IMG/VR virus record: IMGVR_UViG_3300037424_000906
Span: 1-64,000 of that record
Strand: one strand, 5' to 3'
Source: a virus
DNA: 64,000 nucleotides
Part shown: positions 6,394 to 11,092 of the stretch, in pieces
Layout: the number at the start of each line of letters is the position of its first letter
How positions within the stretch are numbered: position 1 is the stretch's first letter
Notes under the pieces: generated by a model
Told to the model about the DNA's origin: nothing
Databases searched by the model: none
Seen by the model: only the letters and a program-made list of their open reading frames with translations
Made by a program: the position numbers and the translations under genes

Positions 6394-7343
6394 GCGCCGT
6401 CCTGGTCCTGCCTGACACCGCAGACGAAGCCGACTGGCTCGCAGCCCGTCGCAAGGGCATCGGTGCGTCCGAGATCGCAGCCATCATGGGCCGCAGCCCC
6501 TACGACTCGCTCTTCAGCCTGTGGTGGAGAAAACGCATGGGCTGGGAGATCCCCGCCAACAACGAGATGTCCACGGGAACGTTCCTCGAACCAACCATCG
6601 CCGGCTGGTTCGCCAAGCACTACGCCTCACCCGAGAACCTGCACATCGACACTGCTGGCCTGTACCAACACGCCGACCGGCCCTGGCAGATGGCGACCCC
6701 GGACCGGCTCGTCTCCGCGATCGACAACTGCGGCGGCATCTGCGACGGCGGGCTCGTGCCAGACGAAGACAGCACCTTCTTCATCGAAGGGTTCAAGCCG
6801 TGCAGCGTGTGCGGGCGCTTCAAGCTGCTCCGGCTACTTGAGTGCAAGTGGGTCGCTTTCAGTTGGGATGGGTGGGGCGAAGAAGGCACCGACGATGTGC
6901 CCGTCCACTACCGCGACCAAGCGCTCTGGCAGCTCGACGTCATGGGCCTTGATGAGGTGGACCTCTGCGCCCTCGGCCCGGGCGGGTTCCGTGTCTACCG
7001 GGTACGTCGCGACGAGAAGGAACTCGTCGGCATGCGTGAGCGTGGGTGCCGGTTCATGGACAGCCTTGCTGCCGGCACCCCGCCCGACGTCGACGAGCAC
7101 TCCTCAACCCTGCCGATCCTGCGCCGGCTGCACGCCGACATCGAGGACCGCGAGCAGGAAATCCCCGCCCAGGTCGCGCAGGGCTGGCAGCGCGCCAAGA
7201 AGTTCAGCGACCTCGCGAAGCAGTTCGAGGCCAAGTACACCGCCTTGCTGCGTGCTCACCTCGGCGACGCCAAGACCGCCGTTCTCGCGGGCGAGAAGTT
7301 CGCCGCCCGCACCTCCAACGACCAGCTTCGGAGAACCAAATGA
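6390..7343 (+). CDS. YqaJ/lambda-exonuclease family recombination exonuclease
   Basis: WLAARRKGIGASEIAAIMGRSPY, ATPDR, LECK, YRDQALWQL motifs; adjacent to RecT. Confidence 0.9.
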   Translation: MSAVLVLPDTADEADWLAARRKGIGASEIAAIMGRSPYDSLFSLWWRKRMGWEIPANNEMSTGTFLEPTIAGWFAKHYASPENLHIDTAGLYQHADRPWQMATPDRLVSAIDNCGGICDGGLVPDEDSTFFIEGFKPCSVCGRFKLLRLLECKWVAFSWDGWGEEGTDDVPVHYRDQALWQLDVMGLDEVDLCALGPGGFRVYRVRRDEKELVGMRERGCRFMDSLAAGTPPDVDEHSSTLPILRRLHADIEDREQEIPAQVAQGWQRAKKFSDLAKQFEAKYTALLRAHLGDAKTAVLAGEKFAARTSNDQLRRTK

Positions 7344-8269
7344 CCGAGACCGCAGCCCCCGCAACCCCAACTCCGACCGCCGAAGTTGCCGTGCAGGACA
7401 CCACTCCCGCCGGGCTGATCAAGCAGTACACCAGTAGCTTCGCCGCCGTCCTGCCCAGCCACATCAAGGCCGAAACGTGGGTGCGTCTCGCCCAGGGCGC
7501 CCTCAAGAGAGGCAAGCGCATCACCGAGCGCGGCCCCGAGTTCGGCAAGTTCGAGCTCGAAGTTGCCGCCACCAACAATCCCGGCCTGTTCCTGGCCACG
7601 CTCCTCGACGCCGCCCGCTTGGGCTTGGAGCCGGGGACCGAGCTTTTCTATCTGACCCCCCGCAAGGTGAGGGGCAAGCTGGAGATCCTCGGCATCATCG
7701 GCTACCAGGGTCACATCGAGCTCATGTACCGGGGCGGCGGGGTGGTGTCCATCGTTGCCGAGGCCGTCTACAGCCGCGACCAGTTCGCGTTCCGGCCCGG
7801 CCGCGACAACGTCCCCCAGCATGACATCGACTGGGACTCCGACGACCGCGGCGAACTCCGGTTGGTGTACGCGTTCGCCCGCATGCGTGACGGGGCAACA
7901 AGCAAGGTCGTCGTCCTGAACAAGGCTGCGATTGCCCGGATCAAGATTTCGTCGGCCGGCTCCGGCTACGACTCCTCGCCGTGGAAGGTGCACGAGGAGT
8001 CCATGTGGGTGAAGAGCGCGGTTCGGCAGCTCCAGAAGTGGGTGCCGACCTCCGCCGAGTACCGGCGTGAGCAGCAGCGTGCTGATGCCGCGTTCGCCGA
8101 GCAGTTGACCGCCCAGGGCGTGAAGATCACCCCTGATGAGGTGCGGTCGATCCGCGAGGGCGGTTACGAGGCCGTGCTGGACGGGGAGATCGTCGACCAG
8201 GAGTTCGACGAAGAGGGCTGGCTGGCAACGCAGGACCCCGCGAACGAGCGCGTGGGCGGTGCCGCGTGA
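7340..8269 (+). CDS. recT: RecT-family single-strand annealing protein
   Basis: LDAARLGLEPG, IIGYQGHIELMYR, ESMWVKSAVRQLQKWVPTS motifs. Confidence 0.9.
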   Translation: MTETAAPATPTPTAEVAVQDTTPAGLIKQYTSSFAAVLPSHIKAETWVRLAQGALKRGKRITERGPEFGKFELEVAATNNPGLFLATLLDAARLGLEPGTELFYLTPRKVRGKLEILGIIGYQGHIELMYRGGGVVSIVAEAVYSRDQFAFRPGRDNVPQHDIDWDSDDRGELRLVYAFARMRDGATSKVVVLNKAAIARIKISSAGSGYDSSPWKVHEESMWVKSAVRQLQKWVPTSAEYRREQQRADAAFAEQLTAQGVKITPDEVRSIREGGYEAVLDGEIVDQEFDEEGWLATQDPANERVGGAA

Positions 8270-9402
8270 GCAGCAGCGTCATCACCCAGTACGCGGTTGC
8301 CAGCGCGGCCGGCGAGGTCGTGTCCCCGTGGTGGGAAGACACCCGCATGGGCACGTCGGAGAACCCGGTTGTGACCGCGTTCGCCCACGCCGAGCAGTGG
8401 CGTAAGGCCAACCATCTGTGGGACGACAGCTACCGGCTGGTGTCGCGGCAGGTCATCGTGTTCAGCGACCTCAAGGCGGTGTCGTCATGAGCGAACTGAC
8501 CTTGTTGCAGCGAGCCGAGATCCAGACCGCGTACCGCGAAGGCCTGCGCGCCGCCCTGGGTGCTCGCGATGTCGACTTTTTCAGCCACGCCCTGGGGGTC
8601 GCCACCGACCTTGCGTACCAGATGGGCATCGAGGCGGCAGGTGCCGGCGGTCGTACCGCCAATGAGCGCCCCTACCGCACCGGATACGCGTCTTGGGACT
8701 GGCGCGAGCAGCCCGACCTGACCCGTCTCGCCGTACTCGTCGCCGATCTGTCCGACGGCCGGGTGCATCTGCGCCAGGTGCGGACCGGCACCGACGAGTA
8801 CGCGGTGGTGGTCGCAGGCCGGCCGATGGACGACGACCAGGCGCGGTCGCTGTGGGAAGCCCTGTCCGAGGATGGGGAGATGCCGTGAGCGTCCAGGAGA
8901 TCACCGCCTACGCCATCGACTGTGACGGCGACCGCTGCACCAACCGGCTGACCGACGTCGAGGAAGGCGGCATCCTCGTCTTTCTCGAAGAAGAGCAGGC
9001 GCGGTCCCCGCTGGCCAGGTCTCAAGTTGCCCGGGCCGAGTGGTCCACCGTCGGCAGCCTGCACTTCTGTGAGGGCGATGACTGCCAGGCCGAGGCCCGA
9101 CGGGAGCGCGCCGCCCTGGCTGCCCGCGCCCCGCTGCCGGTCCTGCCCGGCCAGCTGGCCCTGATCGGTGAGGTCGCCGGGGTCCCCGTCACCTACGGGG
9201 AGGTGACCCGATGAGCTTTGACCCGCGCCTCACCGACGAAGAACGCGCCCGCCTGGCCCAGCTGCCGCGCGGCGACTGGGGATTGCGCAGGCAGGACCCC
9301 ATCGAGCGGGACGCCCACATCGGTGTGCTCATGCGCTGCGCCCAGCTGTGGCGTGACGGCATCCGGCTCGCACTACCGCAGATCCCCCGGGGCAGGCGTT
9401 AA
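8266..9402 (+). other. Four small hypothetical genes (8266-8490, 8487-8888, 8885-9214, 9211-9402)
   Basis: Coupled ORFs; the last uses a TAA supplied by the IS end. Confidence 0.65.
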
Positions 9403-9560
9403 CGCTTCCCCACGGATGAATCCGGGGGATTTCTGGCTCAGACCGCACCCGACCGACCGCCCCGAAGGGAGGTGATCGAATGTCTTACGTCGTCGGCACC
9501 AACACGGTCACGCTCTACCGTGGCGAGGATGACCCTCGCGGCGTTTCGGTCGCGGTCTGC
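9380..9560 (-). ncRNA. Predicted omegaRNA/reRNA overlapping the tnpB 3' end; guide from flanking CGCCTGCCCCGGGGGATC
   Basis: Inferred from standard TnpB architecture; boundaries approximate. Confidence 0.55.
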
Positions 9561-10738
9561 GGTGTGTCCGCAGTCTGCGCACCGGAAGATTCTCTGACTC
9601 AGTTCCAAGCGCATCTTGGCTCTCGAAAAACACTCGGAACAGGTCATCGTGGTGTAAGCGGGCGGAACCAGCACCACCTTCCGGCCCGCCCGCACACCAC
9701 GTTCGATGAGTTCACGCTTTGCCGCACCAACTGCGGCGTCGGCTGCTTTGCGGGCCATGCTCGACTTGGCCAGGAACGTCGGCTTGAAGTCCTCCACGGC
9801 AATGACGGCATGGTTATCGACCACGGACTTCGCCCACATGCGGGAGGCGTGGGCGTTCTGCCGGGCGGCTTTCTTGGCGAGCTTCGCGGCAGTGCGCTTC
9901 GCGTCCTCGTAGCCCCGGGACTGGGCGTTGCCCTTGGGTCTGCGCCTGCGGGACATCTTGCGTTGCGCTGCGGCAAGTTCGGCGGCGCAGCGGCGTCGGT
10001 ATCCGAGGTGCGGCAGGTCGTAGGCCGGGTCGGTGGTGGTCGCGGTGGTGCTGACACCCCAGTCGATACCGATGGAGCCGTCCGTCTCGGGTGCGTCCGT
10101 GATGTCGCGGCGGACCACGAACGACGCGTACCAGTGCCCGAGGGAATCCCGATAGACACGGACGCTGGTCGGGCTCGACGGCAACTCGCGCGACCAGACC
10201 ACGGGGATGCTCAGGCCGCCCGCGAGGCGCAGCCTGCCGTCACGGACTGCGAACCCGCGAAGCGTGTACTCAAGGCTGGGAAGAGTCTTCTTACGGGCCT
10301 TGAAAACAGGGCGTCCACGGCCTTTGACCTTGAAAGACTGCTGCAACGCCATGGTGTAGTTGCGCAGCATCTGCTGTTGGACGACCTGGGAGCCGTCGCG
10401 CAGCCAGCCGAGTTGGGCGCGCGCTGCGGTCAGCATTTTGGACAGGCCGCACAGGGTGGGCTTGTTGCCTTGTTTCTGCTGATGGACGGCTTCGTTCCAC
10501 AGAAACCGGCAGCGGTCCCACTCTTCTTCCAGCGCGGCATCCGCCGTCGCGCCGGGGCGCAAACGGTACGTGTATCGCACCGTTTCGTCCATGAATCCAA
10601 TATACAGGACCCTATTTCTTTCCAATCGCTGAGTAGGCCTTTGAAGTCGTCAAGCGTTACGTCGGGAACCAACGCAACACCTAAGGCACACCCTTACCTC
10701 CCCATGGCTGAAACCACGGGTATCTCGGGAGTTATTCG
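9399..10738 (-). mobile_element. IS200/IS605-family TnpB-only (IS1341-like) element, target motif TCAT
   Basis: Minus-strand left end: GATA then hairpin CCCGTGG-TTTCAG-CCATGGG, preceded by flanking TCAT. Right end: AAAT then hairpin CCCCCGGATTCATCCGTGGGG, ending TTAA. No tnpA present. Confidence 0.85.
9438..10592 (-). CDS. tnpB: TnpB RNA-guided endonuclease
   Basis: YTYRLRP N-terminus; RuvC motifs GIDWG, IAVEDF, DRDRNAA; CSEC/CADC zinc ribbon. TATATT lies 6 nt before the ATG at 10592 (possibly leaderless). Confidence 0.95.
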   Translation of the reverse strand: MDETVRYTYRLRPGATADAALEEEWDRCRFLWNEAVHQQKQGNKPTLCGLSKMLTAARAQLGWLRDGSQVVQQQMLRNYTMALQQSFKVKGRGRPVFKARKKTLPSLEYTLRGFAVRDGRLRLAGGLSIPVVWSRELPSSPTSVRVYRDSLGHWYASFVVRRDITDAPETDGSIGIDWGVSTTATTTDPAYDLPHLGYRRRCAAELAAAQRKMSRRRRPKGNAQSRGYEDAKRTAAKLAKKAARQNAHASRMWAKSVVDNHAVIAVEDFKPTFLAKSSMARKAADAAVGAAKRELIERGVRAGRKVVLVPPAYTTMTCSECFSRAKMRLELSQRIFRCADCGHTADRDRNAARVILATVERDRVGADDVRHSITSLRGGRSGAV

Positions 10739-11092
10739 ATGAAGCCAAAGAAGCCCGAGGAGATCTTCCAGAAGTCGATCCTCGACCTTTGCGCACTGAG
10801 GCACCTGAAGGTCGCACACTTCCGGCCCGCACTCACAAAAACGGGCCGGTGGATAACCGCGGTCAGTGCCGACGGCAAAGGCTGGCCAGACCTGAGCATT
10901 TGCGGTCCGGGCGGGCTCATCTTCCGCGAGCTCAAGTCCGCCACGGGCGTACTGAAGCCTGAGCAGCGTGACTGGTTGGCGTGGTTGACCGAAGCAGGGC
11001 AGGACGCTGGCGTGTGGAAGCCGAAGGACATGCAGTCCGGGCTGATCCCGGACACGTTGAAGCGGCTCTCTAAGTCGGCGGTGACCCGATGA
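10739..11092 (+). CDS. VRR-NUC domain nuclease
   Basis: GWPDL...FRELKSATGVLKPEQRDWL, a PD-(D/E)xK VRR-NUC pattern. Confidence 0.85.
   Translation: MKPKKPEEIFQKSILDLCALRHLKVAHFRPALTKTGRWITAVSADGKGWPDLSICGPGGLIFRELKSATGVLKPEQRDWLAWLTEAGQDAGVWKPKDMQSGLIPDTLKRLSKSAVTR

Follow-up and report, generated by a model that had tools for sequence, protein, structure and literature searches.

The window analysed here is the first 64 kb (64,000 nucleotides) of IMG/VR virus record IMGVR_UViG_3300037424_000906, a 103.8-kb contig with 66% GC and an estimated completeness of 92%. Between two small phage genes on its + strand lies an IS200/IS605-family element, which possesses a tnpB gene on the minus strand and, opposite tnpB, a long open reading frame (ORF) that is read in the same direction as the phage genes. 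The positions of these features are given in Table 1.

Table 1. Features of the element and of the genes on either side of it (positions in the window; SD, Shine-Dalgarno sequence)
Feature	Position	Strand	Detail or basis
Upstream phage gene, 63 aa	9211..9402	+	last base and TAA stop (9399-9402) come from the right end of the element
Predicted 16-nt guide of omega RNA (right flank)	9383..9398	-	minus strand starts CGCCTGCC; position according to the published TnpB model
Inserted IS200/IS605-family element, 1,340 bp	9399..10738	- (top strand of the element is the minus strand)	empty-site allele, conserved ends
Right end	9399..9432	-	TTAA cleavage site (9399-9402), subterminal hairpin (9408-9428), guide tetranucleotide AAAT (9429-9432)
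Predicted omega (right-end) RNA scaffold	9399..9545	-	overlaps the 3' end of tnpB; RNAalifold, 33 relatives
tnpB, 384 aa, RNA-guided RuvC nuclease	9438..10592	-	Pfam PF01385 (OrfB_IS605), PF07282 (Cas12f1-like TNB domain)
Antisense "bridge" ORF, 420 codons	9467..10742	+	SD GGGAGGTGATC (9467-9477), ATG 9480; stops at 10740-10742, the TGA within the target ATGA
Left end, 146 nt	10593..10738	-	hairpin 10700-10720, guide tetranucleotide GATA (10721-10724), -10-like TGTATATT (10599-10606)
tnpA remnant, last ~13 codons and stop (EVVKRYVGNQRNT, then stop)	10643..10684	+	compared with intact TnpA C-termini of L009, L033, L015 and L067
GGGAG, SD-like motif in the left end	10727..10731	+	7 nt before the downstream ATG 10739
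Downstream nuclease gene, 117 aa	10739..11092	+	insertion target is its first 4 bases, ATGA (10739-10742); reads TCAT in the element orientation

When positions 9399-10738 are deleted from the window, the predicted empty site reads ...GGCAGGCG followed by ATGAAG, in which AGG CGA TGA overlaps ATG AAG. An element-free counterpart was sought by a protein-seeded scan of metagenome contigs, which yielded a 2.3-kb contig from a related phage (L106). The L106 DNA aligned with the joined flanks of the window at 87% identity over 877 nt, gapless at the junction. The junction reads ...GGGGCAGGCGATGAAGCC... / ...GGCAGGCGATGAAGCC...; the element is absent, and the ATGA stop/start overlap is intact. Thus, the element comprises the 1,340 bp from 9399 to 10738. 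The ambiguity of 1 nt at the boundary (G is present at both 9398 and 10738) was settled by about 60 relatives, which belong to a set of about 100 TnpB relatives (65-82% identical) from IMG/VR and from the genomes of Micromonospora, Nocardia, Rhodococcus and other actinobacteria. Their right ends show a conserved hairpin, then ...GTTAA, then unrelated flanks. A second hairpin follows 18-19 nt after the start of their left ends, and the tetranucleotide in front of the left end is TCAT at most loci and TCAC at five; the latter is GTGA on the gene strand, that is, a GTG start. On the + strand, the element starts with TTAAC and ends with TTCG, ATGA follows, and there is no target duplication. The element is therefore inserted directly 5' of the ATGA that formed the overlap of the upstream stop TGA with the start codon of the next gene, and both flanking proteins are unchanged by the insertion. 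A preliminary description of this DNA had proposed these boundaries and a silent insertion into an ATGA overlap, and the gapless empty site bears out both proposals.

Only one copy of the element is present in the 103.8-kb genome. When the region was compared with 50,697 phage records by megablast, no match was obtained, and in a distant search of phage records only tnpB matched, in Propionibacterium phages. The exact 24-nt pattern of the empty junction was not found in IMG/VR, where the best relative of the downstream nuclease is 47% identical.

The upstream gene ends AGG CGT TAA, of which T and TAA are the terminal TTAA of the element, and its counterpart in L106 ends CGA TGA. The ending Arg-Arg-stop and the spacing of GGGAG from the downstream ATG had both been described correctly, as had every other base-level statement. 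The stop had also been presented as silent. The change is synonymous here; however, it is a nearly automatic outcome of the TTAA end. A silent NNA-to-NNT change was found at 15 of 16 junction sites in the family and was considered as a sign of selection, and this candidate was rejected because of the baseline: the same change is synonymous at 17 of 18 ATGA junctions in this phage and at 8 of 10 in host flanks. Thus, the silent stop (NNA TGA to NNT TAA) is supplied by the TTAA end, and special selection is not needed.

The bridge ORF, which the preliminary description had overlooked, is aligned codon for codon with tnpB on the opposite strand. Its ATG is located just inside the right end and follows an SD that is a near-perfect ribosome-binding site and complements the tail of 16S rRNA over 10-11 nt. 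In the family, 58 of 60 loci keep at least 1,200 nt of this mirror frame open; the frame stops exactly on the target ATGA at 27 of the 60 loci and on TGATG at four. Between the tnpB start and the host ATG lies a segment that, in full-length elements, includes tnpA read off-frame; it is stop-free in the bridge frame at 37 of 60 loci, whereas the corresponding numbers for the other two frames are 15 and 6. The target TGA is in register with the bridge frame at 41 of 60 loci, against an expectation of 20. The start column is also conserved: among 33 relatives it is ATG in 20, GTG in six, TTG in five and another codon in two. On the tnpB strand, this column means CAT over CAC and CAA over CAG, contrary to the codon preference of GC-rich genomes.

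Codon choice in tnpB accounts for the open frame. The ratio of CTA, TCA and TTA to CTT and TCT is 15:209 in tnpB and 80:55 in the host flanks (Fisher p 4e-28), and zero antisense stops occur within the first 355 codons in 75 of 84 tnpB genes. At the family level, these results show that tnpB avoids TTA, CTA and TCA, keeping the opposite strand open. The backward strand is probably kept stop-free so that ribosomes can cross to the next gene.

Such a frame might instead be a by-product of GC-rich codon usage and shared ancestry, with no selection on it. High-GC genes often possess open antisense frames; actinobacterial host genes have about 0.0023 TTA, CTA or TCA per codon, which would leave about 40% of tnpB-length genes open by chance, and the loci compared are homologous rather than independent. 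However, the tnpB genes use more T-ending Leu and Ser codons than host genes and almost no A-ending ones. The non-coding left end and the off-frame stretch through tnpA are likewise open and in register. Furthermore, the codon usage of this phage, at 66% GC, predicts 3.4 antisense stops in the tnpB of the window, where none is present, and TnpBs that are more distant and whose right ends are TCAA contain 3-7 antisense stops at a GC content of 57-69%. We regard a mere by-product as improbable.

The conserved start codon and SD, and a frame that is open in nearly all relatives, would also be expected of a true overlapping gene, whose product would serve the element as a functional protein. However, the product matched no family in Pfam or PHROGs, and its composition, rich in Gly, Ala, Val, Leu and Arg, is of the mirror-frame type. 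A comparison of the window with L009 by eye indicates weaker conservation of this product than of TnpB. The frame of full-length relatives continues off-frame through tnpA as far as the host ATGA, and so the C-terminus depends on the structure of the element. An overlapping gene is, in our judgement, highly improbable. In one IMG/VR contig (L017, 59% TnpB identity), the flank is TTAC (GTAA on the gene strand), and the mirror frame, open over 1,221 of 1,242 nt, has the TAA of this GTAA as its stop. The bridge design may thus extend to targets other than ATGA.

The preliminary description had assigned the restart of translation to the left end of the element, as a ribosome-binding site (RBS). 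In the corresponding explanation, the TTAA end gives the stop, GGGAG acts as a stand-alone RBS at its short distance from the ATG, and the antisense frame plays no part. The motif is real, and SD-like 4-mers are enriched at the left ends of the family: 21 of 60 relatives possess one, whereas the share among control windows is 7.8%. Loci with an early stop of the bridge show them somewhat more often (13 of 29) than the other loci do (8 of 31). We tried to read the left-end SD and the bridge frame as alternative solutions to one problem, and the cross-tabulation gave only this weak trend. However, two thirds of the relatives are without such a motif, and a stand-alone RBS leaves the depletion of TTA, CTA and TCA, the conserved antisense start with its SD, and the register of the target TGA unexplained. 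This explanation is rather unlikely. Thus, the left-end GGGAG is a secondary feature and not a conserved solution.

Insertion sites were compared among 36 relatives for which both ends were defined and the target was TCAT, and the empty site was rebuilt for each. A site was scored as start-like when the ATG opened a coding frame that was supported by GC content at third codon positions (GC3) and did not continue upstream; 384 other ATGA sites in the same flanks served as controls. Start-like sites accounted for 27 of the 36 insertions (75%) and for 19% of the controls. ATGA overlaps with a coding upstream ORF accounted for 14 of 36 (39%) and 2.3%, respectively (p about 1e-13). These results show, for the family, that gene starts and ATGA junctions are where most relatives are inserted, always in antisense orientation relative to the target gene, in agreement with the earlier suggestion that a TCAT target lets the element land cheaply at coupled junctions. 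The genome of this phage contains at least 18 strict ATGA stop/start overlaps among 574 ATGA or TCAT tetranucleotides, of which just one is occupied. Many equivalent landing sites therefore exist in it.

A tnpB that is 68% identical was found in the Propionibacterium phage Anatole (L140, NC_041890.1 32161-33318), where it is annotated as "transposase", and also in phages B3, E1 and E6. These are cultured phages of cheese bacteria. The left end of the Anatole copy seems truncated, yet antisense stops are absent. It may be an immobilised or domesticated copy.

Terminal inverted repeats are absent from the element. Imperfect subterminal hairpins are present at both ends and conserved in the relatives, and the guide tetranucleotides stand directly 5' of them in the minus-strand reading. 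Measured from the hairpin feet, the cleavage sites are located about 18 nt to the 5' side and about 9 nt to the 3' side, and the pairs of guide and cleavage site are GATA with TCAT and AAAT with TTAA. The base-by-base rule for this pairing was derived from these sequences together with general knowledge of the family, rather than from a structure. Covariation of guide and target was partial: G is present at guide position 4 in three of the five TCAC-flanked relatives. IS608 of Helicobacter pylori, the model for single-strand transposition of IS200/IS605 elements, is cleaved 19 and 10 nt from its hairpins and has 4-nt guides at the hairpin feet (PMC3201880). The present element likewise has 4-nt guides 5' of subterminal hairpins and is inserted 3' of a tetranucleotide that is kept on excision; it differs in its target (TCAT here, TTAC in IS608) and in its right end (TTAA here, TCAA in IS608). 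The closeness of these spacings to those of IS608 and the ends of about 60 relatives confirm the TCAT target and IS608-type architecture that had been proposed from the window.

In most relatives, the left end is separated from tnpB by a divergent gene for Y1 transposase. In contrast to IS608, tnpA of full-length relatives is divergent from tnpB, and the copy in the window has lost it. A search for Y1 transposase (PF01797) in the whole 103.8-kb phage genome found none. Since only a stub of tnpA remains, no Y1 gene is present in the phage and there is no second copy, the element is a non-autonomous, transposase-less IS200/IS605 derivative of the TnpB-only kind ("IS605B" or IS1341). Upstream of the tnpB start by 6-10 nt is an extended -10-like box, TGTATATT here and TGTATAAT or TGTATAGT in relatives, which is conserved by eye and suggests a leaderless tnpB transcript that would fire against the operon. 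A promoter scan with the sigma-70 consensus found nothing and did not report this box.

The element is a further member of a group that has been described. IscB elements and TnpB-only IS605B elements in Microcystis, Halomonas and Marinobacter have an N|ATGA target with 5'-TT and CG-3' termini (PMC4810608). Like the element here, the IS605B-1_MA group of that study (Kapitonov et al. 2016) inserts 5' of ATGA with no duplication, has TT...CG ends and subterminal hairpins, and is TnpB-only. In contrast, the hosts in that study are cyanobacteria and proteobacteria, whereas here they are an actinobacterial clade and a phage. Moreover, start codons, gene junctions and an antisense frame are not mentioned there (the term "start codon" occurs 0 times).

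TnpB itself appears to be intact. The protein matches the ISDra2 TnpB structures 8bf8, 8exa and 8h1j over its full length; the catalytic motifs D (GIDWG), E (AVED) and D (DRDRNAA) are intact, and two CxxC pairs are present. For the omega RNA region (about 150 nt up to the right end), RNAalifold on the 33 relatives gave 39 pairs, 23 of them with compensatory changes, which is what a guide RNA would be expected to show, and the pairs of the right-end hairpin covary. No Rfam family was found in 9300-10850. As in ISDra2, a RuvC triad and a zinc finger are present; the predicted guide RNA would, as there, share sequence with the 3' end of tnpB and continue into the flank. The target-adjacent motif (TAM) of ISDra2 equals the target motif of the transposon, which is TTGAT there; TCAT is the TAM predicted here. 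A literature search on TnpB with TCAT and TAM found nothing relevant. A stop-free antisense frame is not described for ISDra2. Within the omega RNA and the 3' end of tnpB, the minus strand at 9464-9482 reads GATCACCTCC, a conserved stretch that resembles the 3' tail of 16S rRNA.

The predicted 16-nt guide has a single perfect match in the phage genome. Because this match lies behind GTTAA and not behind TCAT, the occupied allele should be immune to its own TnpB. The empty site of L106 consists of TCAT and 15 of the 16 guide bases, with a mismatch at position 11 (T for G; L106:690-712). Guide position 11 is at the edge of the TnpB seed, and the change could be neutral drift or an escape from cleavage. 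Homing by TnpB is established (bioRxiv 10.1101/2023.03.14.532601), and co-infecting phages or plasmids are named among the possible target classes in a 2026 review, which also reports plasmid-to-plasmid TnpB homing without TnpA (PMC13565253). Homing of this element into sibling phages is plausible and would fit that biology.

The element belongs to a + strand operon in which the gene for a RecT-like single-strand annealing protein (7046-8266; PHROG 148, E 4e-56) is followed by several small genes chained via 4-nt start/stop overlaps; this gene lies 1.1 kb upstream of the element. A phage recombinase beside a putative homing nuclease would favour copy-in repair. For the 63-aa upstream gene, no family was found in Pfam or PHROGs. 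The 117-aa downstream protein, which is 76% identical to its counterpart in L106, had been labelled VRR-NUC. This label is weaker than was implied: the match to Pfam VRR_NUC is below the cut-off (E 0.0011, 19.4 against 23.8 bits). The PHROG match of the protein is endonuclease or resolvase.

TnpB could alternatively be inactive here, the element being an inert passenger, or it could be a weapon retained by the phage that cuts competitors without copying itself. The missing tnpA and the single copy point in this direction, as does the fact that the only relative found differs at guide position 11 and, at 87% identity, is a weak recombination partner. However, the catalytic residues and zinc-finger cysteines are intact, the structure of the predicted guide RNA is conserved, a RecT-like recombinase is encoded nearby, and the plasmid-to-plasmid homing mentioned above is reported without TnpA. 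A passenger or weapon of this kind is quite unlikely.

We consider that a TnpB-only IS605 element which lies at an ATGA junction and carries its own translation bridge is the best explanation overall, and a probable one. The element would have been inserted by single-strand "peel and paste" 3' of TCAT (on the gene strand, immediately 5' of ATGA), and transcripts of the operon would run through it. Ribosomes that finish the 63-aa gene at the element-derived TAA would load again 78 nt downstream, at the strong SD of the element. They would then translate the bridge frame, terminate on ATGA and restart the nuclease gene; the left-end GGGAG may help, as a usual SD inside the end of an upstream ORF does. 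Translational coupling would thus be kept, and premature transcription termination on untranslated RNA would perhaps be prevented. Since the bridge would keep the coupling, insertions at gene starts would be nearly harmless. Guided TnpB would cleave copies that lack the element at TCAT and the 16-nt flank; the element would thereby be favoured to persist and, through recombination, to be copied into co-infecting relatives. We infer both the bridge function and the homing between phages from sequence comparison.

Several observations weigh against this explanation. In roughly half of the copies, the bridge frame either stops 29-92 nt before the target ATG or is not in register, and host codon usage alone leaves the antisense frame open with a chance of about 40% per gene. 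The enrichment at gene starts may reflect only the survival of harmless insertions and not aiming. The loci (60-84) are related, and the p-values overstate their independence. The antisense arrangement is not universal, since tnpB of phage Anatole is co-directional with its neighbours. The one element-free relative that was found mismatches the guide at position 11. Finally, the guide RNA, which would be abundant, is fully complementary to the bridge SD and start and could mask or block them; such masking would be a possible cross-talk between nuclease expression and translation of the operon.

The usual price of transposon insertion is a broken gene or operon, and known workarounds are self-splicing, as in IStrons, and the targeting of safe sites. 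The proposed bridge would be analogous in effect to the self-splicing of IStrons. With some reserve, we lean toward the wider view that the IS605 clade targeting TCAT/ATGA evolved a tnpB that can be read both ways and relays the ribosomes of the host operon, by purged codons, an SD with a start, and closure on ATGA, as a "do no harm" device. The ATGA target with TT...CG termini and the homing by TnpB are already known. The gene-start habit and a selected, translatable mirror strand are not described in any paper that we found; a literature search on TnpB with translational coupling and antisense gave nothing relevant, and no paper describing such bridges for TnpB elements was found.

If this view is correct, the clade unites a start-codon target with a translatable mirror strand, and insertion on gene starts would be almost cost-free. 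It would explain how TnpB elements persist inside the compact, translationally coupled operons of phages and actinobacteria. The evolution of tnpB would be constrained by three forbidden codons, which would matter for mining and engineering TnpB editors of this clade. Furthermore, this phage, with its adjacent RecT gene and a natural empty-site relative, would be a concrete system for TnpB homing between viruses.

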